Assembly (NCBI GenBank): GCA_964360445.1
Contig: CAYHWE010000002.1
Coordinates: forward strand, 1-56,391
DNA length: 56,391 nucleotides
From: an uncultured Gammaproteobacteria bacterium
GTDB lineage: Bacteria > Patescibacteriota > Patescibacteriia > Patescibacteriales > JAKAJF01
Direction: 5' to 3'
How positions within the stretch are numbered: position 1 is the first letter of the stretch; each line of letters opens with the position of its first letter. Shown here piece by piece: positions 4,811 through 56,391 of the stretch. A model generated the notes under the pieces. That model made no database searches. It saw only the letters and a program-made list of their open reading frames with translations, and had not been told where the DNA came from. The position numbers and the translations under genes are program-made.

Positions 4811-6040
4811 ATGTTTTCATTCAATACTAAGTTATCGATGGCAAAAGCGGTTTTGACCAAGGACTCTCCATTTTATATCCAATTTTATATTTCTAAATAT
4901 TGCAACCAAAAATGCAAAATGTGCAATATTGTTGAGGCAAATGCAGACCTGACTCCGTTTTCAGGCGATAAGATAGAAAAAATTGCCGATAATCTGGTAA
5001 AGATCGGTGCAGGGGTGGTACTTTTGACCGGAGGCGAGCCATTCTTGAGGCCGGATATCGATGAGATCGTAAAGATATTCAAAAAGAAAAAGCTTGATGT
5101 AAGATTGCAGACTGCTGGATCGATAGATAGGAGAGAAAAAATTGCTGAATGCGTAAAGCATGGAGCAAGGGATATAAATGTCAGCATCGATTCGCTTGAT
5201 GAGGAGTTATCTGATTATATAAACGGACTGGACGGTTCATGGAGGAGTGCGATCCAAACTATTTCTTATGTTTCAAATACTTTTCCGCAAAAAGATTCTA
5301 TCTGCGCTTTAGGTTGCGTGCTTTCCAATTATAATATAGATGAAATCGATGCAGTTCTTGATTTTGCAACAAGGATCGGTTGGTGGTTGTCTTTGGTTCC
5401 TGTCCACATCACCACAACAGAAAATCCTTTGAACTTCAGAGGTTATGATGAATATTTCCATTTTAAAAAAGAAGATTATCCGAAAGTGAAAGAATTGATC
5501 GAAGGCTTAAAGAAGAAAAAGCGAGAAGGATATAATTTGTTTGATTCTGACGATTATCTCGATTCTATTTATCATTTTGTTTCGACCGGACAGCCAAGCT
5601 GGAGGCATGACGGCGTATGTGATACGCCCAACCTTTATTTTGCAATTTTGCCGGACGGAAAATTTGCTCCTTGCTGTGATCATAGATTTACAGAAGATCT
5701 TTATGTTTATGATGATAAATTCCCAGAAATTTTCAAATCAAGCGTGTTCAGGGATAAGGTGAAAAGCATTGCGAAGAAATGCCAAGGCTGTAACTTTGGC
5801 AGCTATCCGGAAATGAGCCTTTCTGCGCGTTCATTCTCGACAATCAGGGAGAGATTAACTTTACAAAGAAAGGCGAAGAAGAGCAGTATTAAGCCGATTT
5901 CCGAGGAAGAAATTTTCAAGATCATAGAAGAAATAAAAAATAAATACCCGATTTATAAGAAAGAAAGGAATTTTCATTTCCGGGAACAGAAAAAATGGCC
6001 AAAAGCGCCTAACATACCTAATTATTTATGGCAGGATTAA
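4811..6040 (+). CDS. Radical SAM enzyme with a SPASM/twitch-like C-terminal Cys cluster
   Basis: CX3CX2C motif (YCNQKCKMCNI) and a GGEPFL SAM-binding motif. The C-terminal CDTPNLYFAILPDGKFAPCC fits Cx9-15Gx4C, followed by CQGC. Confidence 0.75.
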   Translation: MFSFNTKLSMAKAVLTKDSPFYIQFYISKYCNQKCKMCNIVEANADLTPFSGDKIEKIADNLVKIGAGVVLLTGGEPFLRPDIDEIVKIFKKKKLDVRLQTAGSIDRREKIAECVKHGARDINVSIDSLDEELSDYINGLDGSWRSAIQTISYVSNTFPQKDSICALGCVLSNYNIDEIDAVLDFATRIGWWLSLVPVHITTTENPLNFRGYDEYFHFKKEDYPKVKELIEGLKKKKREGYNLFDSDDYLDSIYHFVSTGQPSWRHDGVCDTPNLYFAILPDGKFAPCCDHRFTEDLYVYDDKFPEIFKSSVFRDKVKSIAKKCQGCNFGSYPEMSLSARSFSTIRERLTLQRKAKKSSIKPISEEEIFKIIEEIKNKYPIYKKERNFHFREQKKWPKAPNIPNYLWQD

Positions 6041-7701
6041 ATATATTCATAACAGGAGCTTCTGGATTTATCGGAAATCCTGTCCTGAAAAAAATAATTT
6101 CAAAATTGGATAGCGATGACAAAGTCTTTGTCTTGTCAAGGGCTGTATTTGATTTTGAAGATAAAATGATCGTGGTCTTGAGAGGGGATTTGGAGAACAT
6201 TGAAGCATATGAAAATGAAATTTCAGAAAGCGATTATGTTTATCATTTAGCGGCAAATGCAACATTCGGCAGCGGTTGTGATTATGATAAGGTAAACTTT
6301 TTTCCGACAAAAAAAATCGTCGATATCTTAAGGAGGAGCAAGAGGATTAAAAATTTTATTTTTACCAGCACGATCGGAGCGGTTGATAGGCATAAAAATG
6401 ATTTATGCGAAAAACCTTTGAATGCCAATAGCATTCCGGCTCCCACTTCAGCTTACGGAAAATCAAAGCTGAAATCCGAAGACTATATAAAGCAAAGCGG
6501 GATACCATTCACCATATTAAGGCCAACCTGGGTTTATGGACCGAACATGAGAAGCAATTCCCATTTGAATAAATTCGTTTCCATGCTTTATGAAAAAAGA
6601 GATTTTATTTTTAAATTGAATTTCCCTGGAATGGTGTCTTTGGTTAATGTTGATGACTTGTCTGAAGCTTTGGCGAATTGTATCGGCAATGACGATATTT
6701 TGAATAAAACATATTTTGCAGAAACAGAAAGCCTGTCTTTGGGGGGGGTTCTTAGGATCATTTTCGAGAAAGTGCGAGGAGGCGAATTGAGACAAATCAA
6801 AGTCCCCAAATTTAAAATTATTGGCTGGATCCACAACCTTTTGCCTTTGACAATTTCCAATTTATTCATTGATTATCTAAGGGCAGAGGATAGTGATTTT
6901 AAAAAAGATTTCAAGCTTGAACATATAAAAAGGTTGGTTGAAACGGTGGGTGATATCGTGTTTTCGAATATCCATAATGCCGGGCATTGGATTGTTACAG
7001 GTGCGAACAGCGGAATAGGATTTGCTTTGGCTGACCAACTAAGGCAATCGGGTAAAAAAACAATCTTGATCGATAAGGACACAGGCAATATAAGGGATTT
7101 TGATGGAATCATTTTGCAGACTGATCTTTCTGATCGAAATAGCTTGTATGATTTGGGATTGAAATTGGATAAATATAAGATATTCAGGCTTATTAATAAT
7201 GCCGGAGTGGGATTTAAAAAAGATTTTTTAAGTATGGAAGCCGGAGAAATTGTGAAGACAGTTGAGGTTAATGTTCTAGCCCCCTTATTGTTAACAAAGT
7301 TTCTGGCTGGAAATATAATTAAAAATGAGGGGACTATTGTGAATATAGCATCAAGTGCCGCTTTCAATCCTTTGCCAGGCATGAGCCTGTACGCTGCTTC
7401 TAAATCTTTGATCTTGAATTGGTCCTATTCTTTGTGGTATGAAATGAAAGGCAAATGCAATGTTTTGACTTTTTCTCCCTCAGGCACAAGGACTAATTTC
7501 CAAAAGCAAGCAGGAGTTGCAGTTACTGATGATTTATTATCGCCGGATCATGTTGCGAAAGAAATCATAAAAATGATCGAAAAGAAAAAATCTTTTGCGT
7601 TCCTGGGTTTTAAGAATAAGATTGTTTCACGAATCACTAAATTTTTTCCTGAAAAATTGAATGTTATTTTTTGGGGGGAGGTGTTTAAAAAAATGAGATA
7701 A
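6028..7701 (+). CDS. Fusion of an extended-SDR NAD-dependent epimerase/dehydratase (N-terminal) with a classical short-chain dehydrogenase (C-terminal)
   Basis: There are two Rossmann motifs. The first is ITGASGFIG with catalytic YGKSK. The second is VTGANSGIG, NNAG and YAASK. The gene overlaps the upstream stop by 13 nt. Confidence 0.75.
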   Translation: MAGLNIFITGASGFIGNPVLKKIISKLDSDDKVFVLSRAVFDFEDKMIVVLRGDLENIEAYENEISESDYVYHLAANATFGSGCDYDKVNFFPTKKIVDILRRSKRIKNFIFTSTIGAVDRHKNDLCEKPLNANSIPAPTSAYGKSKLKSEDYIKQSGIPFTILRPTWVYGPNMRSNSHLNKFVSMLYEKRDFIFKLNFPGMVSLVNVDDLSEALANCIGNDDILNKTYFAETESLSLGGVLRIIFEKVRGGELRQIKVPKFKIIGWIHNLLPLTISNLFIDYLRAEDSDFKKDFKLEHIKRLVETVGDIVFSNIHNAGHWIVTGANSGIGFALADQLRQSGKKTILIDKDTGNIRDFDGIILQTDLSDRNSLYDLGLKLDKYKIFRLINNAGVGFKKDFLSMEAGEIVKTVEVNVLAPLLLTKFLAGNIIKNEGTIVNIASSAAFNPLPGMSLYAASKSLILNWSYSLWYEMKGKCNVLTFSPSGTRTNFQKQAGVAVTDDLLSPDHVAKEIIKMIEKKKSFAFLGFKNKIVSRITKFFPEKLNVIFWGEVFKKMR

Positions 7702-8584: not shown

Positions 8585-9510
8585 AAAAAATAGAAATAAT
8601 CGTTCCTGTTTACAATGAAGAGAAATGCATTGATGAATTTGTCATGCGGATAAATAAGTTAAGGGAACAAACGGACGGAATGGATGTGAATGTGGTTTTT
8701 GTCAATGATGGATCTAAGGATAAGAGTTCTGACCTGTTGAATTTGTATGCGAATAAATATTCTTTTTTGAAAGTGATTGAATTCAGCCGGAATTTTGGCC
8801 ATCAGATGGCGGTTACGGCCGGATTGGACAATGTTGATGCTGATTATGTGGCTATAATTGACGCCGACCTGCAGGATCCGCCAGAATTGATAATTGATAT
8901 GATAAAGAAGGCGGAAGAAGGATTTGATGTAGTGTATGGAAAAAGGTTGACGCGCAAAGGGGAAACTTTTTTCAAGAAAATGACAGCAAGATTGTTTTAT
9001 ACAATTATCAGCAAGATGTGCGATGTCAATATCCCGATCGATACCGGTGACTTCCGCCTGATCAATAAGCAGGTTCTGGATATTTTGAAGCAGATGCGAG
9101 AAAAGCATAGGTTTATAAGGGGAATGGTTCCTTGGATCGGATTCAATAGTTCGCCGATCTATTATCATCGTGATGAAAGATTTGCCGGAGAGACGAAATA
9201 CCCTTTAAAGAAAATGATAAAATTCGCCAAAGATGCGATTTTCTCTTTTTCTGATACTCCCTTAAGAATTGCTAATTTTATAGGTTATTCTATTGTTTTT
9301 ATCGGGATTTTAGGTTCGATTTTGATGCTTTACTTAAAGCTGATGACAGAGTATACTGTTCCTGGAATCACGGCTGTTATTTTGACTGTAATCATAATGG
9401 GTGGTATCCAGATTTTGATGCTGGGAATCATAGGAGAGTATGTCGGCAGGATTTTTGAGGAATCAAAAGAGCGGCCATTATATATCATAAAAAATAAAAA
9501 AAATTTTTAA
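8569..9510 (+). CDS. GT2 polyprenyl-phosphate glycosyltransferase (GtrB/ArnC-like) with two C-terminal TM helices
   Basis: IEIIVPVYNEE..., FVNDGSKD, IDADLQDPPE, RGMVPWIGF, and a C-terminal pair of hydrophobic helices followed by GEYVGRIF. Confidence 0.8.
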   Translation: MLQQIKKIEIIVPVYNEEKCIDEFVMRINKLREQTDGMDVNVVFVNDGSKDKSSDLLNLYANKYSFLKVIEFSRNFGHQMAVTAGLDNVDADYVAIIDADLQDPPELIIDMIKKAEEGFDVVYGKRLTRKGETFFKKMTARLFYTIISKMCDVNIPIDTGDFRLINKQVLDILKQMREKHRFIRGMVPWIGFNSSPIYYHRDERFAGETKYPLKKMIKFAKDAIFSFSDTPLRIANFIGYSIVFIGILGSILMLYLKLMTEYTVPGITAVILTVIIMGGIQILMLGIIGEYVGRIFEESKERPLYIIKNKKNF

Positions 9511-9513
9511 TTT

Positions 9514-10314
9514 ATGCAAAATGAAATTTTAAAAAAAGAAGAAGATTTCCATGATGGCTGGGCTAGTTCAATCAATCTGGACGAGGTTATGGTTGATGAG
9601 TTTTTTGAGGCCTGCACTTCTCCGGAAAATAAATTGATAATGGAAAAATTGGGTGATGTCAGGGGAAAGAAAATCTTGGAATTAGGCTGTGGTGCCGGTG
9701 AAGCCTCGGTTTATTTCGCCAAAAAAGGCGCGACCGTGACTGCTACGGATATTTCCAATGGAATGCTTAAGGTCGTGGATGATTTAGCTGCACGACATGG
9801 CGTTTCTCTTGAGACAAGGCAATGTTACTCTCACACGATCCCTTTCCAGGATGGAAAATTTGATATTGTTTATGCAGCTAATCTTTTACACCATATCGAC
9901 TTGGAGCCGACCTTAAGGGAAATCAAAAGAGTTCTGAAAACAGGGGGGATTTTTGTCGGCTGGGATCCTTTGGCGCATAATCCTTTGATAAACATTTATA
10001 GGAGAAAGGCAAAACTTGTCAGGACAGATGATGAGCATCCTATAAGGATCAATCAACTGGATTTATTCAGGGAAAATTTTTCTGAATTTGAGTATAAGGC
10101 GACTTGGTTTTTTACGCTTTGGATTTTCCTTAAATTTTATCTGGTTGACAGGATTGATCCCAATAAGGAAAGATATTGGAAAAAAATCCTGATTGATCAT
10201 AAAAAGCTAGAAAAAACTTATTCAAAATTAGAAAAGGTAGATAAAACATTGTTGAGGTTTTTCCCTTTTTTTAGAAAGTATTGCTGGAATATTATAATTT
10301 TCGCAATAAAATAA
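9514..10314 (+). CDS. Class I SAM-dependent methyltransferase
   Basis: Motif I ILELGCGAGEASVYFAKKG; the post-I acidic residue is in TATDIS. Confidence 0.7.
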   Translation: MQNEILKKEEDFHDGWASSINLDEVMVDEFFEACTSPENKLIMEKLGDVRGKKILELGCGAGEASVYFAKKGATVTATDISNGMLKVVDDLAARHGVSLETRQCYSHTIPFQDGKFDIVYAANLLHHIDLEPTLREIKRVLKTGGIFVGWDPLAHNPLINIYRRKAKLVRTDDEHPIRINQLDLFRENFSEFEYKATWFFTLWIFLKFYLVDRIDPNKERYWKKILIDHKKLEKTYSKLEKVDKTLLRFFPFFRKYCWNIIIFAIK

Positions 10315-38802: not shown

Positions 38803-39657
38803 ATGGACAACATAATCATCACAAATCAAGAAAAATTAGATGCAGTAAAAGCGAGGATTATCGCGGATGGGCCGGAAAAGCTCCATGTAGTTTCGGATTT
38901 TGATAAGACTCTGACTTCTTGTTTCGTCAATGGAGCGAAAATCGCTTCCCTGATTTCAATCTTGCGCGATGAAAATTATCTGACTCCTGATTATCCGGAA
39001 AAAGCTAAGGCGCTTTTTGAAAAATATCATCCGATCGAAATTGATCCCTCCGTGTCTTTAGAAAAAAAGAAAAGATGGATGCATGAATGGTGGAATGCGC
39101 ATTTTGAACTGCTTATAAAATCAAAATTGAATAAGAAAGATTTAGAGAAAATTATTAACTCTGAAAATATTTCTTTACGTCCCGGTGTTTTGGAATTATT
39201 GGACTCTTTAAAGGCTAATAATATTCCGTTAATTATTATTTCTGCGGCCGGGCTCGGAACAGAATCTATTTCTTTGTATTTGAATAAATTCAACAGATTG
39301 CATAATAATATCCATATCGATTCCAATGCGTTTATTTGGAATGATTCCGGCCATGCAACCAGTATTGAAGAGCCGATTGTCCATGTTTTCAATAAGGATT
39401 ATTCATCTGTTAAGGCCCATTCTTTTTACGAGCAGGTAAAAGACAGGAAGAATGTCTTGTTATTAGGTGATAGCGAAGGAGATGCGAGCATGATTGACGG
39501 TTTTGATTGTGAAAATGTTATCAAGATCGGATTTTTGAATGAGATTTCAGAAAATGGAGATTCATTAGAGTTATTCAAGAAAAATTTTGATGTCATTATT
39601 TTGAATGATGGACCGATGGATTTTGTTAATGATTTATTGAAAGAAGTGGTAAAATAA
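38803..39657 (+). CDS. HAD-superfamily pyrimidine/7-methylguanosine 5'-nucleotidase (UMPH-1 / cytosolic 5'-nucleotidase III family)
   Basis: VVSDFDKTLT, EKYHPIEIDPSVSLEKKKRWMHEWW, IISAAGLG, HVFNK, LLLGDSEGDASMIDG and IKIGFLNE run collinear with my recollection of animal NT5C3. Confidence 0.8.
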   Translation: MDNIIITNQEKLDAVKARIIADGPEKLHVVSDFDKTLTSCFVNGAKIASLISILRDENYLTPDYPEKAKALFEKYHPIEIDPSVSLEKKKRWMHEWWNAHFELLIKSKLNKKDLEKIINSENISLRPGVLELLDSLKANNIPLIIISAAGLGTESISLYLNKFNRLHNNIHIDSNAFIWNDSGHATSIEEPIVHVFNKDYSSVKAHSFYEQVKDRKNVLLLGDSEGDASMIDGFDCENVIKIGFLNEISENGDSLELFKKNFDVIILNDGPMDFVNDLLKEVVK

Positions 39658-39663
39658 ATTTGT

Positions 39664-39834
39664 ATTGTCATTGCGAGGAGCGGAGCGACGCGGCAATCTC
39701 TGGTTTATCGGAATGAAGATTATTTTAAGTATGAGTATGTAGAAATAGCAAGCTTAAATATTTTGCATAAAAACATTCTTTCGCGCGACTAACCTGAGAT
39801 TGCTTCGCTGCACTCCGTTACGCTCACAATGACA
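39664..39834. mobile_element. MITE/REP-like palindromic intergenic element (about 171 bp) with imperfect terminal inverted repeats
   Basis: The left arm attgtcattgcgaggagcggagcgacgcggcaatctc matches the reverse complement of the right arm gagattgcttcgctgcactccgttacgctcacaatgaca. The core is AT-rich. The element fills the whole gap between the stop at 39657 and ATG 39837. Confidence 0.5.
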
Positions 39835-39836
39835 TT

Positions 39837-40268
39837 ATGAAACAAAAAAGAAAAATTTCAATATTTTTGCCAATTAAATATAATGAAGATGAATTAATGG
39901 TTTATCTTCAAAAACGTTCGGCAGATATGGAGAAGCTTCCAAATTATTTTGGTTTTTGGGGCGGCGGAGCGGAAGGAGATGAAACTGCCGAAGAAGCTTT
40001 AATTAGGGAGATTAAGGAAGAAATGAGTTTTGATATTAATATTAATCAGGTTGAACTTTTTAATATTTACGAATTTATTAGAAGTACAAAATCAATTTTT
40101 GTATTTAAACCAGAAGACGGCTGGGAAAATAAAATTGTAATCGGCGAAGGAGATTACGGTAGATGGTTGACGGCATCGGAGGCTTTAAGATTGGATAGTA
40201 TGATTTTGGAAGACAAAGTTGTTATTAATGACTTAGAAAGAATTTTACTTAAAAAGCCGATCAGGTAA
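39837..40268 (+). CDS. Nudix hydrolase
   Basis: Nudix box GGGAEGDETAEEALIREIKEEMSF. Confidence 0.75.
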   Translation: MKQKRKISIFLPIKYNEDELMVYLQKRSADMEKLPNYFGFWGGGAEGDETAEEALIREIKEEMSFDININQVELFNIYEFIRSTKSIFVFKPEDGWENKIVIGEGDYGRWLTASEALRLDSMILEDKVVINDLERILLKKPIR

Positions 40269-40273
40269 TTGCC

Positions 40274-40600
40274 ATGCAACTACAAGATTTTCAAAATTTA
40301 ATCTGGGGTATATCGGGAAAAGAGGACGGAAAAATGAAATTGGATACGGAAATTGCTTTTGAGAATAGGAAAAATTTTTTTAATAAAATCGGAATTGATT
40401 TTGAGGATACGGTTTCTGCTGGGTTGGTGCATGGAAATAGAATTGAAACAGTTGATGAAGATAGTGAGAGGATAATAAAAGAAGTTGACGGATTGATTAC
40501 GAATAATAAAAATTTATTTTTGACTATTGCCATTATTTTTTGTCTTGCCGGAGGAACGGCCTGGGCGGCTATAATCGATCTTTTTGGTTTAGATAAGTAA
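40274..40600 (+). pseudogene. pgeF: N-terminal remnant of pgeF/YfiH (DUF152 purine nucleoside phosphorylase / peptidoglycan editing factor)
   Basis: ISGKEDGKM...NRKNFF..IGI...VSAGLVHGNRIE.V......EVDGLITNNKNLFLTI matches the first ~85 aa of the family. The expected ADC..P and HAGWRG regions are absent. The shifted frames read DYC and LPLFFVLPEE, and the ORF ends about 150 aa short. Confidence 0.45.
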
Positions 40601-40613
40601 GTTTTTGCAATCA

Positions 40614-40647
40614 GCCACGCATTGTCTATATGCGTGGCATTTTTTAT
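40614..40647 (+). terminator. Hairpin plus T-run after the pgeF remnant
   Basis: CCACGCAttgtctataTGCGTGG followed by cattttttat. Confidence 0.45.
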
Positions 40648-40649
40648 AA

Positions 40650-40680
40650 ATAAAAAGCGGCGAGCTTATCGGCTCGCCGC
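40650..40680 (-). terminator. Rho-independent terminator of the minus-strand two-gene cassette
   Basis: The + strand reads GCGGCGAGCttatcgGCTCGCCGC. On the - strand the hairpin is followed by TTTTTATTTAT. It overlaps the last codons of the 81-83 aa ORF. Confidence 0.55.
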
Positions 40681-40911
40681 GTTTCTTCTTAATTCAGCTC
40701 GCTTGACGTGTATGGCCTGCACCGACCTTCCGATCTGTTTCCCCAGTATTGAATCAGGAAGGTTTTTTTCCGATGTGATGAGAAGGATTTCCAGCTCAGT
40801 CCATCTTTTATTCGAGTTTTTTCGATTGTCGGGATGCTCTCTGTGTTTTTTATAATATCTTTGTTTGTCTTCTTGTCTTTTTTTCGGACTGCGATATTTA
40901 TTCCTGCCCAT
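40666..40911 (-). CDS. Small, very basic protein with a Myb/SANT- or GcrA-like helix-turn-helix
   Basis: A Lys/Arg-rich N-terminus, then RWTELEILLITSEKNLPDSILGKQIGRSVQAIHVKRAEL. SD GGAGG sits 7 nt before ATG 40911, inside the 3' end of the upstream small ORF. Confidence 0.45.
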   Translation of the reverse strand: MGRNKYRSPKKRQEDKQRYYKKHREHPDNRKNSNKRWTELEILLITSEKNLPDSILGKQIGRSVQAIHVKRAELRRNAASR

Positions 40912-41056
40912 TCGCATTACCTCCCGAAAAGCAGGTTTCCGCCTCCGCCCTAAGGGTGAATGTTCCGATCTGGCCGCACTCAGGGCAAATCTCGCCGGCG
41001 TCGGTTGGTTTGATGATGTGGCCGCATTTGCTGCAATGTTTATCCGTTCCTGTCAT
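40898..41056 (-). CDS. 52-aa zinc-ribbon protein (not in the ORF track)
   Basis: Hand translation gives MTGTDKHCSKCGHIIKPTDAGEICPECGQIGTFTLRAEAETCFSGGNANGQE. SD GGAGGAG lies 5 nt upstream. It overlaps the next ORF by about 14-20 nt. Confidence 0.4.
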   Translation of the reverse strand: MTGTDKHCSKCGHIIKPTDAGEICPECGQIGTFTLRAEAETCFSGGNANGQE

Positions 41057-41113
41057 CGCTCTCCTCCTTTAATGAACAAAAGGGGATTGATTCCCCCAGT
41101 TTTTTATAATTTT

Positions 41114-41142
41114 ATTTAATCAATAAAAACACCGCCTGTCAA
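41114..41142 (-). promoter_or_regulatory. Candidate promoter of the minus-strand cassette, divergent from maf
   Basis: On the - strand: TTGACA, a 17-nt spacer, then TTAAAT. Confidence 0.35.
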
Positions 41143-41163
41143 ACTGGCATGATAATAAATTGA

Positions 41164-41172
41164 TGTTATAAT
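41164..41172 (+). promoter_or_regulatory. Extended -10 promoter (TGtTATAAT) of maf
   Basis: TGTTATAAT ends 8 nt before ATG 41181. Confidence 0.4.
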
Positions 41173-41180
41173 GGGTTTAT

Positions 41181-41747
41181 ATGAAAATAATCTTAGGTTC
41201 ACAATCAAAATGGCGGAAGGGGATTTTGGAGGGCATGGGGTATAAATTTGATGTCATGTCGCCGGATATAGATGAGAAAGCGATCAGGGATGATGATCCG
41301 AATGAATTGACTTTGAAATTGGCACGCGCCAAGGCAGAAGCGCTTTTGCCAAGGATCAAGGACGAAGTGATTTTGATTACTTCGGATCAGGTCGTTGTCT
41401 GCAATGGTGAAGTCCGGGAAAAGCCGGAGAGCGAAGAGCAGGCGAGGGAGTATTTAAAAAGTTATGCCAAGTATCCGATTGAAACAGTGACTGCAGTTTT
41501 TGCAATAAACACAAAAACAGGGAAAAGAGCCGAGGGTGTCGATGTTGTTAGCCTTCATTTTGCGCCGATTCCGGAGGATGTTATCGAGAAATTGATCAGC
41601 AGCGGCGATATTTTTACCTGCGCAGGCGGCTTTTCTTTGGAAATAGCTGTTTTGGAAAATTTATTGGGACAAATCGATGGCGAGCGGGAAAGCGTGATCG
41701 GCATGCCAAAGACATTGACCGAGAGATTGATCAAGGAAGTTTCATAA
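41181..41747 (+). CDS. maf: Maf-family nucleoside triphosphate pyrophosphatase
   Basis: IILGSQSKWRKGIL...DVMSPDIDEK, TSDQVVV, EKP, and GGFSLE...VIGMP. Confidence 0.8.
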   Translation: MKIILGSQSKWRKGILEGMGYKFDVMSPDIDEKAIRDDDPNELTLKLARAKAEALLPRIKDEVILITSDQVVVCNGEVREKPESEEQAREYLKSYAKYPIETVTAVFAINTKTGKRAEGVDVVSLHFAPIPEDVIEKLISSGDIFTCAGGFSLEIAVLENLLGQIDGERESVIGMPKTLTERLIKEVS

Positions 41748-41810
41748 GTTTATTGACTTTTTTCCCGAAAAGAATAAACTGGATTAAAGCGAACCTTAAG
41801 GAGGTTAAAG

Positions 41811-42434
41811 ATGAATACCGGACATTTGCTTTCAAAAGAGGCTTTATTTCTTATGGGCTGGTTGAAGGGGCTCGGTATGCAGATGGCCACAAAGGCCATT
41901 TATTTTATGGCGGAGGCGCACAAGGGACAAAAAAGAGATGATGGCAGGGATTATGCCGAACACCCGACAAGAATAGCCAGGATGCTTTTAAGCCTTGGTA
42001 TCCGTGATGAAGCGACTATAGTAGCCGCTCTGCACCATGATACCGTTGAAGATGGCCGTACGACATTGCAGACAATCAGAGAGAAATTCGGAGATGATGT
42101 TGCTCTTCTTGTAGATTTGCTGACAAAAAATAAGAATATGTCAGCAGAGGAGTATCAGAGAAATCTCCGCCGCGATAAGAGGGCGGTTTTGATCAAGGCG
42201 GCGGACAGGCTTTGCAATGTTGAAGATATGGTAGATGTCTTTACTTCGGAGAGGCTGATAAAATACATAAAAGAAACCGAGGAGGTTATAATTCCCATGA
42301 TGAAATGGGCAAGGAGGGAGTTTCCGGAATATGCCAATATCCTGATCATTCTCCGTGACAGCATAAAAGCGATTCTGCGGGTAGCAAAAAAACTTGCGCA
42401 GGTTGAAAATATGAAAGCAGGCGCAGGAGTTTGA
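41811..42434 (+). CDS. Stand-alone HD-domain (p)ppGpp pyrophosphohydrolase (SpoT/Mesh1-like small alarmone hydrolase)
   Basis: AHKGQKRDDGRDYAEHPTRIARML, AALHHDTVEDG and FGDDVALLVDLLTK. SD AGGAGG lies 8 nt before the ATG. Confidence 0.7.
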   Translation: MNTGHLLSKEALFLMGWLKGLGMQMATKAIYFMAEAHKGQKRDDGRDYAEHPTRIARMLLSLGIRDEATIVAALHHDTVEDGRTTLQTIREKFGDDVALLVDLLTKNKNMSAEEYQRNLRRDKRAVLIKAADRLCNVEDMVDVFTSERLIKYIKETEEVIIPMMKWARREFPEYANILIILRDSIKAILRVAKKLAQVENMKAGAGV

Positions 42435-42602: not shown

Positions 42603-44693
42603 ATGTCTGACAACATCATTAAAAAACTGTTACAGCCGAGCGCAAAAGGCAAGGTTTGGAGGGCTTTTATCTTGATCATCTTACTTACTTTCATTGCCGG
42701 TTCGATTGTCGGCGGTTCTTATTACAACAAGGGCGTTGACAGTCTGGCGGTAAAGACTGACAACAAAATCAGATTGCCGCATATTAAGGAATATGATTTC
42801 AGATTAGGTTTAGATCTTTTGGGCGGAAGCAGATTGGTATACAAAGCTGATGTGTCTGCCGTGCCTAATAGCGACAGGACAAACGCTTTAGAGGGTGTGC
42901 GCGATGTGATCGAGCGCCGCGTCAATGTATTCGGCGTCAGCGAACCGATAGTCCAGACAAATAGATCGGGAGACGATTACAGGATCATTGTTGAATTAGC
43001 CGGGATCAAAGATGTTAATGAAGCGATCAAGATGATCGGTGAAACTCCGCTTTTGGAATTCAAAGAACAGAATACGGAAAAAAGAGAATTGACTCCTGAA
43101 GAAAAGAAGGAAATGGATGATTATAATAAAAAGGCTGAAGAGAGAGCGGCTACCGTTTTGGGCAAAGTCATATCAGGCGGAGATTTTTCCGCTTTGGCCA
43201 AGGAATTTTCAGAAGATGCGGCAACCAAGGATAACGGCGGAGATTTAGGCTGGATAACGGAAAAAGATAATTCGGAAATCGTAAAGATCGCCCAAAAATT
43301 GAAAAAGGGAGAAGCATCCAAGGAACTGAGCAAAGTTTCAACTGGATTTGAAATCGTAAAATTTGAAGATAAGAGGGTTAAAACGGATCCATTTAATGAT
43401 AAGAGCCAAGAAAAAGAAGTCAAAGCTTCGCATCTCCTGATTTGCTATAAAGATATCGAGGGATGCGAAAGCGGTCTGACAAAAGAAGAAGCTTACGCGA
43501 AGATAAAGAAATTGAAAGAGCAGGCAACGGCTAAAAATTTCAAAGAATTGGTCAAGGCGAATACGACTGAGCCGGGCGGAAAAGAAAGAAGCGGCGATCT
43601 GGGCTGGTTCGGAAAAGGCATGATGGTCAAACCGTTCGAAGATACCGCGTTTTCCATGCAGAAAGGAACAATTTCTTATGTCGTTGAAACGCAATTCGGT
43701 TACCATCTGATTTATAAGGAAGATGAGAAGTTGATCGAAGAATACAAAGTCAGGCATATCGCGGTCAAGACGAAAACCGCGGAAGATATCATCGGGATCC
43801 AGACAGACTGGAAGAATACTGAGCTGACCGGAAAGAATTTAAAGAAAGCGACTGTGCAATTCAATCCTCAGGATAACACTCCGGAAGTTTCTTTGGAGTT
43901 TGACGATGAAGGAGCGAAGATGTTCGAGGAAGTTACAGCCCGCAATATCGGCAATCCTGTCGCCATTTTCTTGGATAATTATCCGATCAGCACTCCGAAT
44001 GTGAATGAAAAGATTACCGGCGGAAAAGCGGTTATCTCGGGAAACTTTGACTTGAAGGAAGCAAAATTGTTGGCTCAAAGGCTGAACGCCGGCGCCCTGC
44101 CCGTCCCTATCTCTTTGGTCAACCAGCAGATAGTGGGAGCGACATTGGGACATGATTCTCTGCTCGCAAGCCTTAAGGCTGGCATCGTCGGTTTTATCCT
44201 GGTCGCCTTGTTCATGATCTTATTCTACAGATTGCCTGGGTTGATAGCTGTGTTCTCACTGGGAATTTATGGAGTTTTAGTGTTGGCGGTATTCAAGATT
44301 TTCTCAGTAACCTTGACTTTAGCCGGACTTGCCGGATTCATCCTGACCATCGGTATGGCCGTGGACGCAAATATTCTTATTTTTGCCAGGCTTAAAGAAG
44401 AGTTGCGCAAAGGCAAGCCGTTTGGCATGGCCCTAGAAGACGGCTTCCAGAGAGCTTGGCCATCGATCAGGGACAGTAATTCTTTCACGATCATCACCTC
44501 TATTATCCTGATCATGTTTACGACCAGCGTTGTCAAGGGATTTGCCGTTACCCTCATCATCGGCGTCATCATCTCGATGTTCTCGGCAATCGTCATTACG
44601 CGCAATTTCCTGAATTTGATTCCGATGGATTGGTTGGAAAGCAAAGGCTGGCTGATCGGCATGAGAAAAAAATCTTCAGAATTAGCTAAGTAA
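42603..44693 (+). CDS. secD: Protein translocase subunit SecD carrying an insertion of two parvulin-type PPIase domains in the periplasmic P1 head
   Basis: SecD core: LGLDLLGGSRLVY, RRVNVFGVSEPIVQ, ELAGIKDV, ...GNPVAIFLDNYPISTPNV..I.GG.AVISG, and the C-terminal TM bundle with GMAVDANILIFARLKEE. Inserted residues ~157-400 contain GGDFSALAKEFSEDAATKDNGGDLGW and ASHLLI...SGDLGWFGKGMMVKPFEDTAFSMQKGTISYVVETQFGYHLIY. Confidence 0.85.
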   Translation: MSDNIIKKLLQPSAKGKVWRAFILIILLTFIAGSIVGGSYYNKGVDSLAVKTDNKIRLPHIKEYDFRLGLDLLGGSRLVYKADVSAVPNSDRTNALEGVRDVIERRVNVFGVSEPIVQTNRSGDDYRIIVELAGIKDVNEAIKMIGETPLLEFKEQNTEKRELTPEEKKEMDDYNKKAEERAATVLGKVISGGDFSALAKEFSEDAATKDNGGDLGWITEKDNSEIVKIAQKLKKGEASKELSKVSTGFEIVKFEDKRVKTDPFNDKSQEKEVKASHLLICYKDIEGCESGLTKEEAYAKIKKLKEQATAKNFKELVKANTTEPGGKERSGDLGWFGKGMMVKPFEDTAFSMQKGTISYVVETQFGYHLIYKEDEKLIEEYKVRHIAVKTKTAEDIIGIQTDWKNTELTGKNLKKATVQFNPQDNTPEVSLEFDDEGAKMFEEVTARNIGNPVAIFLDNYPISTPNVNEKITGGKAVISGNFDLKEAKLLAQRLNAGALPVPISLVNQQIVGATLGHDSLLASLKAGIVGFILVALFMILFYRLPGLIAVFSLGIYGVLVLAVFKIFSVTLTLAGLAGFILTIGMAVDANILIFARLKEELRKGKPFGMALEDGFQRAWPSIRDSNSFTIITSIILIMFTTSVVKGFAVTLIIGVIISMFSAIVITRNFLNLIPMDWLESKGWLIGMRKKSSELAK

Positions 44694-53181: not shown

Positions 53182-53215
53182 AGGGCGGACTCTTGCGGTT
53201 CGCCCTTTCATTTTT
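53182..53215 (+). terminator. Hairpin plus T-run terminator
   Basis: AGGGCGgactcttgcggtTCGCCCT followed by ttcattttt. Confidence 0.45.
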
Positions 53216-53240
53216 AGCACTCTTGACACTAGAGTGCTAA
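53214..53240. promoter_or_regulatory. CIRCE operator (HrcA binding site)
   Basis: TTAGCACTC-ttgacacta-GAGTGCTAA is a perfect match to the CIRCE consensus TTAGCACTC-N9-GAGTGCTAA. Confidence 0.9.
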
Positions 53241-53252
53241 TTGAGATACAAT
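53223..53252 (+). promoter_or_regulatory. Heat-shock operon promoter overlapping CIRCE
   Basis: TTGACA lies in the CIRCE spacer (53223-53228), followed by an 18-nt spacer and TACAAT (53247-53252). ATG 53264 is 11 nt downstream. Confidence 0.55.
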
Positions 53253-53263
53253 GAGGCTATATT

Positions 53264-53950
53264 ATGGAAAAAAGAAAAGAGTTGATACTTAAGACAATCA
53301 TCAAAGAGCATATAAAAACAGGGGCGCCGGTAGGGTCCGGAATTTTGGTTGATAAATATAAGCTGGACATCTCGCCAGCCACGGTCCGCAATGAAATGGC
53401 CGACCTGGAAGAAGGGGGTTATATAAAACAGCCGTATACTTCCGCTGGCAGGATTCCGACTGAAAAGGCTTATAGATTATATATCGGGGACCTGAAAGAA
53501 AAGAAATTGAATCGGGAAGAGGAAGAACTTTTGACGGCGATACTCATAGAAAAAAATGAATATAATTTCAAGCAGATTGCGAAATTGATTTCTAAGATTT
53601 CTGATAACGCGGTTTTCTGGGCTTTTGACAGAAGCAGCCTATACTACACCGGAATTTCCAGCCTGCTTTCCCAGCCGGAATTCGTCCAGAATGACCTGAT
53701 TTACGATATTTCCGCGATCATAGACAAGATGGATGAGATCATAGATAAGAGTTTCAACGGATTCGAATTCGGGACGCAGATCCTTTTGGGATCGAATAAT
53801 CCGTTTTCAAAACATTGCAGCGCTATCCTGACTAAATACAAATTGGGAGACAAGATCGGCCTGTTCGGCATTTTAGGGCCGATCAGGATGAATTATGAAA
53901 AAAATCTGACGCTAATAAAATTTATAAGCGATAAGCTAACAGAGAAATAA
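53264..53950 (+). CDS. hrcA: Heat-inducible transcription repressor HrcA (short form, 228 aa)
   Basis: N-terminal wHTH PVGSGILVDKY.LDISPATVRNEMADLEEGGYI.QPYTSAGRIPT.KAYRLY, and a C-terminal GILGPIRMNYEKN. It is about 100 aa shorter than typical HrcA. Confidence 0.8.
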   Translation: MEKRKELILKTIIKEHIKTGAPVGSGILVDKYKLDISPATVRNEMADLEEGGYIKQPYTSAGRIPTEKAYRLYIGDLKEKKLNREEEELLTAILIEKNEYNFKQIAKLISKISDNAVFWAFDRSSLYYTGISSLLSQPEFVQNDLIYDISAIIDKMDEIIDKSFNGFEFGTQILLGSNNPFSKHCSAILTKYKLGDKIGLFGILGPIRMNYEKNLTLIKFISDKLTEK

Positions 53951-53952
53951 AT

Positions 53953-54813
53953 ATGACTTTAGAAAAACAGGAACAAAAAAAAGAAACATATCCAAGAGCG
54001 ATCGTCGGCGCGTTCATTTTTAATGACAAAAATGAATTATTCCTCATGTCCAGCTCTAAGTGGAGCAATAAATTCGTCTGTCCGGGCGGAGGGGTGGAGT
54101 TCGGCGAGAAATTGGAAATCGCCCTGGAGAGGGAAGTGAAAGAAGAGACGAATATGGACATAGAGAATGTCGAATTTTTGGGTTTTATCGATGCTTATGA
54201 TACGGGGAAATCCTATATCAAAGAAGGAAGCCATCTTTTATTTTTCAATTTTAAGGCGCGCGTCAAGGGCGAGCCGGAAATAATCCTGGACGAAGAAGCC
54301 GTCGGCCATAAATGGCTGAAAGCTGAAGACTGGCTGAAAGAAGATTTGGGAGAGTATGTGAAAAATGCGATCGAGAAATATCTGTTGGGAGAAAAAGAAG
54401 ATTTTGAATATTTATACAAGCGCGCTTTGGCGGATTATCAGAATTTATCGAAACAGACCGCGCGCGAAAAGCAGGAATTCGCGAAATATGCGAACGAACA
54501 ATTAATTTTGGAATTTATTCCGGTTTACGACAATTTAAAAACATCGTTGAAGCACGCGGATGAGAAGGCGAACGGATGGCTGGAGGGAGTGAAATATGTG
54601 ACCAAACAATTCGGCGATGTCTTTAAGAATTTTGGAGTAGAAGAGATAAAAACAGAAGGCGAAAAGTTCGATCATAATACGATGGAATCGGTCGACACGG
54701 AAAAGACGGATGACAATGATAAGGACGGGATGGTGGCGAAGGAAGTATCGGCCGGGTATAGGATGGGAGAGAAGGTGATCAAGGCGGCTAGGGTGATAGT
54801 ATATGAAGTATAA
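53953..54813 (+). CDS. grpE: Nudix hydrolase domain fused in frame to the nucleotide exchange factor GrpE
   Basis: Residues ~13-140 carry the Nudix box GGGVEFGEKLEIALEREVKEETNM. Residues ~150-286 are GrpE: YKRALADYQNLSKQTAREKQEFAKYANEQLILEFIPVYDNL, FDHNTMESV, GYRMGEKVIKAARVIVYE. No stop codon or ATG lies between the two domains. Confidence 0.8.
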   Translation: MTLEKQEQKKETYPRAIVGAFIFNDKNELFLMSSSKWSNKFVCPGGGVEFGEKLEIALEREVKEETNMDIENVEFLGFIDAYDTGKSYIKEGSHLLFFNFKARVKGEPEIILDEEAVGHKWLKAEDWLKEDLGEYVKNAIEKYLLGEKEDFEYLYKRALADYQNLSKQTAREKQEFAKYANEQLILEFIPVYDNLKTSLKHADEKANGWLEGVKYVTKQFGDVFKNFGVEEIKTEGEKFDHNTMESVDTEKTDDNDKDGMVAKEVSAGYRMGEKVIKAARVIVYEV

Positions 54814-54984: not shown

Positions 54985-55404
54985 ATGTCACCACTGATAA
55001 AATGGACCCCATTTTTAGAGCCTTTTGAGGATATGGAAAAAATGTTTGGCGAAATGATGCCAAGCACGCGCCATGGATTTATGCCGGCGATTGATATGTA
55101 TGAGGATGAAAATAATGTGATCGTTGAGACCGAACTGGCCGGTATCGATCCGGAGAAAGTGGATATTTCGATTGAGAATGATGTTTTGACGATCAAGGGT
55201 GAGAGCGAGAAGAAAAGCGAGGTGGAGGATAAGAATTATTACAGGAAAGAAATCAGGCGCGGCAGTTTTTACAGAAATATCCCTTTACCGATCCATGTTT
55301 TAGGAGACAAGGCAAGCGCTGTCGCGGAAGGCGGAGTATTGAAAATTTCTGTCCCGAAAGCGCAGAAAGCGAAACCGAATAAAATTAAAATCCAGACTAA
55401 ATAA
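54985..55404 (+). CDS. Small heat-shock protein (Hsp20/alpha-crystallin family)
   Basis: PAIDMYEDENNVIVETELAGIDPEKVDISIENDVLTIKGE...RGSFYRNIPLP......A.AEGGVLKISVPK. Confidence 0.9.
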   Translation: MSPLIKWTPFLEPFEDMEKMFGEMMPSTRHGFMPAIDMYEDENNVIVETELAGIDPEKVDISIENDVLTIKGESEKKSEVEDKNYYRKEIRRGSFYRNIPLPIHVLGDKASAVAEGGVLKISVPKAQKAKPNKIKIQTK

Positions 55405-55438: not shown

Positions 55439-56391
55439 ATGGGTAAAATATTGGGTATAGATTTGGGAACAACAAATTCGGCAATGGCGCTCATCGAAGG
55501 TGGCCAACCGAAAATTTTAGAAAATGCGGAAGGCGTCAGGACGACTCCTTCTATGGTTGCGATTTCAAAAAGCGGTGAAAGGTTGGGCGGTTTGCCGGCT
55601 AAACGCCAGGCGGTCACAAATCCGGAAAATACGGTTTTTGAAGTCAAGCGTTTGATCGGCCGCCGTTTTTCTGATCCGGAAGTCGCAAGAGACCAGAAAA
55701 TAATGCCTTACAAGATCGTGCAGGCCGGGGAAGCGGTCAAGATCAAGATGGGGGATAAGGAATATACCCCTCAGGAAGTTTCAGCTATGATCTTATCTAA
55801 ATTGAAAGCTGATGCGGAAGCAAAATTGGGCGAAACGATCACAGAAGCGATCATCACAGTCCCTGCTTATTTCGACGATTCGCAAAGGCAGGCGACAAAA
55901 GACGCGGGCCAGATTGCGGGTTTGAATGTCAAGCGCATCATCAACGAACCGACAGCGGCAGCGCTCGCTTATGGATTCGATAAAAAGAAAGGTGAAAAGA
56001 TTGCGGTTTATGATTTAGGAGGTGGAACATTCGATGTTTCTATTCTGGATATCACTGAAGATACTGTTGAAGTGAAATCAACAAACGGCGACACCCATTT
56101 GGGCGGAGCTGATTTTGACCAGCGCGTTATCAATTGGATCATCGATGAATTCAAGAAAGATCAGGGCATTGATTTAAGCAAAGACACCTTAGCTTTGCAA
56201 AGAATCAAAGAGGCTGCGGAAAAAGCAAAGATCGAATTATCAAGCGCGATTGATACGGAAATCAATCAGCCGTTCATCACGGTCGGAGCAGACGGTCCGA
56301 AGCATCTGGTGATGAAGATGTCTCGCGCTAATTTGGAAGAATTTGTCGGTGATGTGGTTGAAAAAACAATCGAGCCATGCAAACGCGCTTT
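55439..56391 (+). CDS. dnaK: Molecular chaperone DnaK (Hsp70), 3'-truncated by the window edge
   Basis: This ORF is not in the ORF track because it has no stop within the window. Hand translation gives [41 protein letters not shown]...[40 protein letters not shown]...[12 protein letters not shown]. Confidence 0.95.

Follow-up and report, generated by a model that had tools for sequence, protein, structure and literature searches.

A predicted Nudix hydrolase domain fused to the co-chaperone GrpE in a heat-shock operon of Patescibacteria

A Nudix–GrpE gene between hrcA and hsp20

The window analyzed here is a stretch of 56,391 nucleotides (contig CAYHWE010000002.1, positions 1 to 56,391 of the forward strand, GenBank assembly GCA_964360445.1; GC content 39.6%) from an uncultured bacterium of the candidate phyla radiation, placed by GTDB in the Patescibacteriota. 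Between hrcA and hsp20, it encodes a single protein in which a Nudix hydrolase domain precedes the nucleotide exchange factor GrpE. The gene (53953–54813, forward strand) starts with ATG and forms one open reading frame (ORF) of 286 aa, which GenBank lists as MEK7097952.1 under the name “nucleotide exchange factor GrpE” only, the Nudix half being unmentioned. Both halves score far above the Pfam gathering cut-offs: PF00293 (NUDIX) matches residues 15–132 with 70 bits against a cut-off of 21.1 (E = 2.6e-19), and PF01025 (GrpE) matches residues 144–284 with 123.9 bits against 25.8 (E = 6.9e-36), covering positions 23–164 of the 165 in the profile.

By Pfam, AlphaFold2, and Foldseek, the Nudix fold spans residues 15–144 (53995–54384, forward strand), i.e., the Pfam match and a C-terminal helix at residues 134–144. 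It contains the Nudix box at residues 46–68 (54088–54156, forward strand; GGVEFGEKLEIALEREVKEETNM), which reads G46-x5-E52-x7-R60-E61-V-K-E64-E65-T-N-M. A short junction follows (residues 145–150, LGEKED; 54385–54402, forward strand), with a predicted local distance difference test (pLDDT) score below 50 at residues 148–151. The GrpE domain (residues 144–284; 54382–54804, forward strand) is divided by Pfam, alignments, and the AlphaFold2 model into a stalk helix (151–201), a bundle helix (207–226), and a beta domain (229–285), and includes the motifs IPVYDNL (189–195) and FDHNTME (239–245). An earlier sequence-only reading of this DNA had proposed a continuous Nudix–GrpE ORF of this length, with an intact G-x5-E-x7-REVKEE box, GrpE motifs in its C-terminal half, and neither a stop codon nor an internal ATG between the halves. 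Its coordinates and length proved exact, no ATG lies between M68 and M244, and the box, the motifs, and the Nudix assignment are borne out by the matches above.

The AlphaFold2 monomer model, built on 34 orthologues, gave the Nudix fold 10-residue block-mean pLDDT values mostly between 83 and 97, with a single block at 69 (residues 81–90). For the GrpE half, it predicted helices at 151–166/170–201 and 207–226, then strands at 229–285. Confidence along the stalk was just 50–76, as expected when a dimeric coiled coil is modeled as a monomer. The distance from the Nudix end to the xALADY motif varies little between fusions (median 14 aa, interquartile range 14–16, n = 132).

The fusion is conserved across assemblies

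We searched about 5.8 billion proteins and obtained 994 relatives, of which the best 120 were inspected. All 120 carry both PF01025 and PF00293, at identities down to 47% and lengths of 272–389 aa, and they stem from NCBI, ENA, JGI, and Logan assemblies, including metagenome-assembled genomes of Patescibacteria, Falkowbacteria, and Parcubacteria (taxonomic spread was judged from record names). When the Nudix half alone was used in an exhaustive HMMER search, the 150 best representatives at 50% identity contained another 20 fusion clusters. Overall, independently assembled Patescibacteria genomes supply at least 140 protein clusters with the fusion architecture in the same operon slot, and the exact window protein was found on 2 contigs. 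A scan of GTDB genomes, unfit for taxonomic distribution or counts, listed 600 stretches that included one fusion (L001; L and P numbers are our labels for loci and proteins of relatives) and many stand-alone Nudix and unfused GrpE genes.

Translation of a separate GrpE from a conserved internal start was considered and rejected, as no conserved in-frame start was found at the junction across 9 loci. Candidate GTG or TTG codons occur there at differing positions, an SD-like (Shine–Dalgarno-like) motif stands upstream of only 3 of them (in 2 loci), and 2 of the 9 loci have no candidate internal start codon at all. Neither a local frameshift nor a chimera can account for an uninterrupted architecture that at least 140 clusters share: a few lineages do carry a separate nudix gene immediately upstream of a grpE-containing gene, so that the two-gene order exists, but the downstream gene there is itself a Nudix–GrpE fusion, and with the identical protein on two contigs and no shared internal start, the probability that frameshift or mis-assembly joined two genes is negligible. 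The refutation envisaged by the sequence-only reading, i.e., an assembly frameshift concealing a separate grpE with its own SD sequence, is thus excluded by cross-assembly conservation.

Literature searches on GrpE with Nudix and fusion, on GrpE in Patescibacteria, and on DUF1653 returned no paper on a Nudix–GrpE fusion, and “Nudix”, “fused”, “fusion”, and “additional domain” appear nowhere in the text of a 2025 review of GrpE-like factors. The supposition that the fusion is undescribed therefore holds for papers but not for databases, where the architecture is abundant and both Pfam domains are pre-computed; two JGI entries are even named “GrpE/8-oxo-dGTP pyrophosphatase MutT” (P0106) and “GrpE/NADH pyrophosphatase NudC” (P0391). 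Taken together, the Nudix–GrpE fusion is real, widespread, and unstudied, with both halves drawn from well-known families.

An HrcA/CIRCE heat-shock operon

The fusion gene begins 2 nt after the end of hrcA (53264–53950, forward strand), and a CIRCE operator, the binding site of HrcA, lies at 53214–53240 (forward strand; TTAGCACTC-N9-GAGTGCTAA, 0 mismatches). This operator is the only such match in the window, and 0 of 100 shuffled sequences matched. It is overlapped by a sigma-70-like promoter (53223–53252, forward strand; TTGACA-18 nt-TACAAT), a consensus match only, at 11 of 12 positions. A terminator-like hairpin with a T-run (53182–53206, forward strand; 10-bp stem with 6 GC pairs, then TTCATTTTTA) is predicted to close the upstream CDP-alcohol phosphatidyltransferase gene and to isolate the heat-shock operon. 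Downstream of the fusion gene are hsp20 (54985–55404, forward strand; PF00011, E = 7.6e-19), which sits between grpE and dnaK in the same place in loci of the clade, and the 5′ part of dnaK (55439–56391, forward strand; 317 codons), a gene that runs past the window end. The hrcA–grpE–dnaK operon named by the sequence-only reading was thus right in its order but missed the interposed hsp20.

The window HrcA is a short form of 228 aa (PF01628, E = 6.1e-17), and its relatives at loci L081–L095 are likewise short, at 226–247 aa against about 340. It scores 173 bits with TIGR00331, under the 197-bit cut-off, and matches this model in two stretches. It is as though a central segment of the protein had been lost, and the perfect CIRCE is kept nevertheless. 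With an hrcA gene and a perfect inverted repeat at the promoter, the operon has the features of the HrcA/CIRCE regulon, which places nudix-grpE under CIRCE/HrcA heat-shock control.

The C-terminal half as a probable nucleotide exchange factor

The GrpE half aligned over its full length to the solved GrpE structures of G. kaustophilus (4ANI, 2.5e-14), T. thermophilus (3A6M, 6.5e-13), E. coli (1DKG, 7.7e-10), and M. tuberculosis (8GB3, 1.7e-7). As in these canonical proteins, its 140 C-terminal residues, which align end to end, are predicted to form a stalk helix, a bundle helix, and a beta domain, and it is encoded in an hrcA-grpE-dnaK context with CIRCE. Unlike them, the fusion has a predicted folded enzyme domain of 130 aa instead of a disordered tail, a shorter stalk, and hsp20 inserted before dnaK. 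The alignment to E. coli GrpE starts at E. coli residue 64, and the model stalk helix begins only six residues earlier, at residue 151 of the fusion; what the Nudix domain replaces is thus the first third of canonical GrpE, comprising its unstructured tail and the beginning of the stalk. The earlier proposal that a Nudix fold takes the place of the canonical N-terminus therefore stands, with the amendment that the stalk is also shorter than that of E. coli.

In the alignment to 1DKG, N164-L165 corresponds to N71-L72, P190 to P97, K274 to R183, G268-Y269 to G177-Y178, and G212 to position 122, at which 1DKG carries the G122D mutation. Across the 34 orthologues, all of these residues, including the R-to-K exchange at K274, are invariant or at least 90% conserved. 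Of the E. coli counterparts, we take position 122, R183, and the P97 region to be DnaK-contact or essential positions, as reported by Harrison et al. (1997), and position 122, the grpE280 position, to be a glycine in the wild type.

The NCBIfam GrpE equivalogs (PRK141xx) were not reached, the best being NF010750 with 86.5 bits against a cut-off of 194. We attribute this shortfall to lineage-specific models, divergence, and the short stalk rather than to non-membership in GrpE; the PF01025 score, the predicted stalk–bundle–beta architecture, and the association with dnaK and hrcA/CIRCE all agree with a GrpE. We infer that this half is the dimeric nucleotide-exchange factor of the operon.

The N-terminal half as a probably active Nudix domain

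The PF00293 score, the Nudix-box glutamates, and a predicted alpha/beta/alpha sandwich fold place the N-terminal half in the Nudix superfamily. Of 142 fused domains, 133 (94%) retain all six box residues (G46, E52, R60, E61, E64, and E65), as do 132 of 134 stand-alone relatives, so that the catalytic glutamates, whose conservation in orthologues the sequence-only reading had left to be checked, are indeed kept. The penultimate glycine of the box consensus, GX5EX7REUXEEXGU, is replaced by N67, and asparagine is found there in 71% of fused members. Another five residues, N24, W37, H94, E115, and W121, are conserved in fused and stand-alone Nudix domains alike. Given these shared pocket residues, the chemistry and the class of ligand are most likely unchanged between the fused domain and its free relatives, and most fused Nudix domains are probably active enzymes.

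One residue sets the fused domains apart. W127 (codon 54331–54333, forward strand) is tryptophan in 84% of fused Nudix domains versus 1% of stand-alone relatives, and is a candidate inter-domain or interface residue. About seven fused domains have lost catalytic glutamates, four times through E61K, and all of these keep the domain; E61 aligns with E53 of MutT, which we take to be the general base. Since degenerate domains are retained and W127 is fusion-specific, the conservation pattern suggests that, besides catalysis, the Nudix domain serves the fusion in a structural capacity. In L001, the fused box is degenerate (RKIKDE) and an intact stand-alone paralogue lies immediately upstream. We examined the idea that a degenerate fused Nudix is always backed by an adjacent stand-alone copy; it holds for L001 and was rejected for P0102, P0110, and P0075.

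Next, we compared the Nudix half with characterized enzymes. The solved structures closest to it in sequence are R. felis 4KYX (9e-11), Arabidopsis NUDX1 (AtNUDX1, 3e-7), and NudI (4e-6). Foldseek returned 4KYX, NudI, NUDT15, the T. thermophilus Ndx1 diadenosine hexaphosphate (Ap6A) hydrolase, the Aquifex diadenosine tetraphosphate (Ap4A) hydrolase, and AtNUDX1 at E-values of about 1e-10 to 1e-8, with target-normalized TM (template-modeling) scores of 0.65–0.85 against these enzymes and a probability of 1.00 to many Nudix structures. For 4KYX, NudI, NUDT15, Ndx1, and AtNUDX1, the scores lie at 0.73–0.85. These neighbors span many specificities. The fused domain resembles such minimal Nudix hydrolases in predicted fold, sequence, and complete box, and differs from them in being attached to a co-chaperone, in falling below all NCBIfam cut-offs, and in its fusion-specific W127. 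AtNUDX1 itself acts on dihydroneopterin triphosphate (DHNTP), 8-oxo-dGTP, and prenyl diphosphates.

Substrate assignment by NCBIfam was rejected, as nothing scored above a cut-off. Specifically, the scores stayed below threshold for the MutT 8-oxo-dGTPase models TIGR00586 (31 bits against 97.9) and PRK10776 (32.7 against 148) and for the NudB-type dihydroneopterin triphosphate diphosphatase model PRK09438 (21.4 against 103). A functional analogy to NudB rests instead on the similarity to AtNUDX1 and on relatives fused to FolB. At 33–44% identity, relatives of the Nudix half occur as Nudix-FolB, HAD-Nudix-FolB, HAD-Nudix, Nudix-MazG, and TP_methylase-Nudix proteins, which share N24, W37, H94, E115, and W121 with it. 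Unlike GrpE, which offers no small-molecule product, these partners are metabolic enzymes of the folate or pterin pathway or house-cleaning enzymes, suggesting substrate channeling. The HAD-Nudix-FolB arrangement would correspond to consecutive steps of the folate pathway; in work attributed to Klaus et al. (2005), a Nudix enzyme of this kind reportedly takes pyrophosphate off DHNTP.

A proline about 16 residues after the Nudix box is said to mark ADP-ribose pyrophosphatases and a tyrosine at about +17 hydrolases of diadenosine polyphosphates (a rule ascribed to Dunn et al., 1999). Neither is conserved in the orthologue alignment, where Y82 is also unconserved, although the rule itself is old and imperfect. 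Overall, the domain belongs to a small AtNUDX1/NudI/YlgG-like clade, which looks triphosphate-type because of its closest relatives and of the FolB, HAD, and MazG fusion partners. From this sequence placement, the likeliest substrates are triphosphate- or dinucleoside-polyphosphate-type stress or house-cleaning nucleotides rather than the ADP released by DnaK, and nothing ties the fused Nudix to plain ADP.

One of the closest stand-alone relatives, with 45% identity (P0127, L090 125–1352), is encoded by a gene that runs into the beginning of a radical-SAM gene, and a metallo-beta-lactamase-fold (Apyc1-like) hydrolase comes next.

A swappable N-terminal slot

The fusion occupies a defined position in a neighborhood shared among relatives, (mreB-mreC-)PBP2-hrcA-[X]grpE-hsp20-dnaK-dnaJ, in which mreB and mreC were present at L081, L084, and L085. 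X is a Nudix domain in L081, L082, L087, and L095, a DUF1653 domain in L084 (P0273), and a Lys/Glu/His-rich tail of only 30 residues, i.e., an unfused GrpE, in L085 (P0272) and L086 (P0303). The attachment point is common to all three forms and precedes the YKRALADYQNL helix by about 10 residues. The sister proteins thus share the syntenic slot and the attachment point with the window protein, but carry the 60-aa DUF1653 (related to 3BE3) or the 30-aa tail instead of the Nudix domain.

DUF1653 (PF07866)-GrpE proteins of 205–229 aa, namely P0273 (L084 8001–8690), P0270, P0271, P0283, P0325, P0334, and others, are carried in the same hrcA-X-hsp20-dnaK slot by many sister Patescibacteria and by Falkowbacteria. 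The sole relative of DUF1653 in the PDB is 3BE3, an “uncharacterized protein”, and we found essentially no literature on the domain. These DUF1653-GrpE and unfused forms came to light through a protein search with the GrpE half; its hits reflect a word-index choice of candidates rather than a ranking, and listed no Nudix fusion, not even that of the query itself.

The genes flanking the fusion in the window most resemble those of L085, an unfused locus (HrcA 75%, PBP2 70%, and Hsp20 81% identity), and the Nudix-bearing loci are more distant (HrcA 54–66%). The GrpE half is 62–70% identical (tblastn) or 71–75% identical (GrpE-domain alignment) to DUF1653-GrpE and unfused forms; among the other Nudix fusions, the near-twin P0002 excepted, identity does not exceed 70%. 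In a neighbor-joining tree of 258 GrpE domains over 132 columns, poorly resolved and unfit for counting gains and losses, 69% of nearest neighbors shared an architecture class versus 41% at random, such that the classes are clustered yet interleaved rather than cleanly monophyletic. Within the fusions, the distance matrices of the two halves are correlated (138 fusions, Mantel r 0.51, with 0 of 500 permutations as high); the halves co-evolve, and the fusion is old and inherited as a unit.

Extra Nudix copies recur around the slot. Four loci (L001, L087, L088, and L089) have the order hrcA, stand-alone Nudix (145–146 aa, with an intact REVKEE), Nudix-GrpE. In L001, the stand-alone gene lies at 1071–1508 and the fusion at 1532–2371; in L087, they lie at 6001–6441 and 6446–7309, and the fused box is intact (REMKEE). 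A higher-GC relative, L095, encodes a Nudix-Nudix-GrpE protein of 449 aa in the hrcA-X-hsp20-dnaK slot (P0235, 7001–8350). We counted such additional Nudix domains, beside or within the fusion, as a sign of selection for Nudix activity in the operon.

Taken together, the GrpE N-terminus appears from these comparisons to behave as a plug-in site in this Patescibacteria clade, filled by a Nudix domain, DUF1653, or a charged tail. As close relatives have an unfused GrpE or a DUF1653-GrpE at the syntenic position, the Nudix domain is probably an accessory and not part of the GrpE exchange mechanism. A parallel exists in Anabaena sp. PCC 7120, where deletion of residues 1–67 of the GrpE All4144, a helix-turn-helix region, abolishes DNA binding and leaves nucleotide exchange activity in place (bioRxiv 10.1101/2025.04.14.648684). 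There too, an N-terminal accessory module adds a second activity to GrpE and is dispensable for exchange; unlike the Nudix domain, it is a DNA-binding helix-turn-helix rather than an enzyme, and its host is a cyanobacterium rather than a member of the Patescibacteria.

Other insertions were seen in the operons of relatives. L086, whose genome has the unfused GrpE, carries a CYTH-domain (triphosphate tunnel metalloenzyme) gene between hsp20 and dnaK (9090–9683), i.e., a second phosphohydrolase recruited into this chaperone operon, and L081 and L082 encode a 288–307-aa protein with no Pfam match at that place. In two Nudix-GrpE loci, the IMP dehydrogenase gene (guaB) lies immediately upstream of hrcA (L081 7503–8966; L093 1551–2987, split into two ORFs). 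This enzyme is a reported Ap4A-binding protein (PMC10148737), and its position beside hrcA may be a coincidence.

A proposed stress-co-regulated hydrolase on a chaperone scaffold

We consider it reasonably probable that the product is a heat-shock protein with two functions, in which a nucleotide exchange factor is joined to a Nudix hydrolase that is co-regulated with the stress response and scaffolded on the dimer. In this scheme, the GrpE half would exchange nucleotide on the DnaK encoded two genes downstream, and a catalytically competent minimal Nudix pyrophosphohydrolase would have been recruited to the stalk tip of GrpE, replacing the disordered charged tail. Gene order and operator show that the fusion sets the hydrolase under HrcA/CIRCE control and in fixed stoichiometry with the chaperone. 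Two Nudix domains would be held on the dimeric coiled coil through the short, length-constrained junction, and the hydrolase would act independently of the exchange factor, induced along with the chaperones.

The tail that the Nudix domain displaces is functional in E. coli, where the motif 17-IIM-19 binds the substrate-binding domain (SBD) of DnaK and promotes client release (PMC12915176). In the fusions, the tail preceding the Nudix domain has a median length of 4 aa, and hydrophobic triplets are missing from it in 137 of 142 members. With so small a tail and such triplets so rare, tail-mediated substrate release may be absent or may have been taken over by the globular domain. Any mechanistic coupling of the Nudix domain to DnaK is hypothetical.

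Several observations weigh against this proposal. The activity of the fused Nudix domains is a prediction, and their substrate is a guess: the Nudix half reached no NCBIfam equivalog cut-off (the best, NudI PRK15472, gave 36.3 bits against 95), and no folate or pterin genes lie within the 56-kb window, leaving a role on DHNTP with no local support. The AlphaFold2 inter-domain geometry carries no confidence (predicted TM-score 0.50, with a low-confidence junction). The N-terminal module is also often lost or swapped, with 56 parsimony changes on the poorly resolved tree of 258 GrpE domains; with so many swaps, selection for the fusion may be weak and its benefit perhaps mere co-expression. Finally, one grpE lies in the 56-kb window; with coverage of this window and of loci of about 20 kb in relatives, these genomes may carry a second, canonical grpE elsewhere.

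Among the alternatives, the fusion could be a ligand-gated co-chaperone, which we regard as unlikely. The Nudix domain would bind or slowly turn over Ap4A, ADP-ribose, an oxidized NTP, or the alarmone (p)ppGpp, and its occupancy would alter stalk stability or DnaK engagement, tying exchange to the metabolic state. The short, length-constrained junction and the fusion-specific W127 would be expected of a domain that is coupled mechanically, and the E61K variants, altered at the putative general base, keep the domain and the other pocket residues, as a binder would. The GrpE stalk is a known thermosensor. Ap4A photo-crosslinks to DnaK, GroEL, and ClpB, apaH mutants are heat-sensitive, and Nudix enzymes degrade Ap4A (PMC10148737); these reports lend some appeal to the sensor role that the sequence-only reading had offered. 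However, 94% of members keep the full catalytic set, the same as stand-alone enzymes, orthologous GrpEs work in the same slot with no Nudix domain (L085, L086), and the residues said to be hallmarks of ADP-ribose (Pro) and Ap4A (Tyr) enzymes are unconserved.

A more general and rather speculative version, to which we give a small chance, sees the GrpE tip as a port wiring small-molecule chemistry into the Hsp70 cycle. The Nudix domain would act on a stress nucleotide that binds or poisons DnaK, such as Ap4A or damaged ATP analogues, or the level of the ligand would gate exchange, and DUF1653 would be an alternative cartridge.

The Nudix domain might instead be a structural cap or tail substitute, a part that any small globular domain could play by steadying the short coiled coil or touching the DnaK SBD or lid, with catalysis an evolutionary leftover; we think this quite improbable. 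It would fit the shorter stalk, the retention of domains that have lost catalytic residues, the unrelated small DUF1653 in the same position in sister lineages, and the nearly absent pre-Nudix tail (median 4 aa, 137 of 142 with no hydrophobic triplet), whose E. coli counterpart binds the SBD through 17-IIM-19 (PMC12915176). A pure scaffold, however, needs neither catalytic nor pocket residues, and these are under strong purifying selection (133 of 142); moreover, the fused copy can stay intact beside a stand-alone copy, as in L087.

Less tenable still is a direct action on the DnaK nucleotide, in which the Nudix domain would hydrolyze released ADP or ATP, making exchange irreversible or recycling the nucleotide; we deem it very improbable. 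Some Nudix enzymes accept nucleoside diphosphates, and the only appeal of this option is the logic of joining an exchange factor to a nucleotide hydrolase. Against it, the closest relatives are triphosphate or pterin/prenyl-diphosphate enzymes with FolB, HAD, or MazG partners, orthologues with no fusion are found in the same slot, the position of the domain is the N-terminal stalk tip, and destroying ADP beside an ATPase would seem wasteful in cells with little nucleotide synthesis. The processing of released ADP, one of two roles offered by the sequence-only reading, is thus disfavored by the stalk-tip position, the type of Nudix, and its dispensability.

Other genes of the window

Elsewhere in the window, a nucleotide house-cleaning gene cluster (38803–42434) comprises a UMPH-1-type pyrimidine 5′-nucleotidase (38803–39657), a MutT-like stand-alone Nudix (39837–40268), Maf (41181–41747), and an HD_4 domain protein (41811–42434). 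The adjoining region encodes a SecD (42603–44693) with two PpiC-type peptidyl-prolyl isomerase (rotamase) domains in its periplasmic region; the same arrangement is found in L084 and L085 and represents another conserved domain fusion in the clade. A large cell-envelope glycan biosynthesis cluster (2221–30068) contains many GT2 and GT4 glycosyltransferases, methyltransferases, NDP-sugar enzymes, a flippase-like Polysacc_synt protein, a Bac_transf priming transferase, and GtrA, and a Lamin-tail-domain protein is encoded at 108–2036.

Implications

GrpE is among the best-studied co-chaperones, and its N-terminus is debated as a pseudo-substrate driving client release from DnaK. In this clade, natural variants of a single orthologous gene have the tail replaced by a predicted enzyme, replaced by DUF1653, or kept plain, so that the function of the GrpE N-terminus can be studied by comparing them. 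DUF1653 gains its first functional context, as a module at that N-terminus, and the database label “GrpE” hides half of the Nudix-bearing protein.

In cells whose nucleotide metabolism is minimal, the fusion also brings a predicted nucleotide pyrophosphatase under heat-shock control. If a link between Nudix and DnaK is true, e.g., through the clearing of Ap4A, which crosslinks to E. coli DnaK, it would join alarmone biology to the Hsp70 cycle, and if the GrpE tip does serve as a small-molecule port, the protein would be the first enzyme- or ligand-coupled nucleotide exchange factor. If there is no such link, the fusion would be a tidy case of co-regulation by gene fusion in reduced genomes. 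Overall, the modular N-terminal port, which takes a Nudix domain, DUF1653, or a tail, may be a more interesting result than the single fusion.

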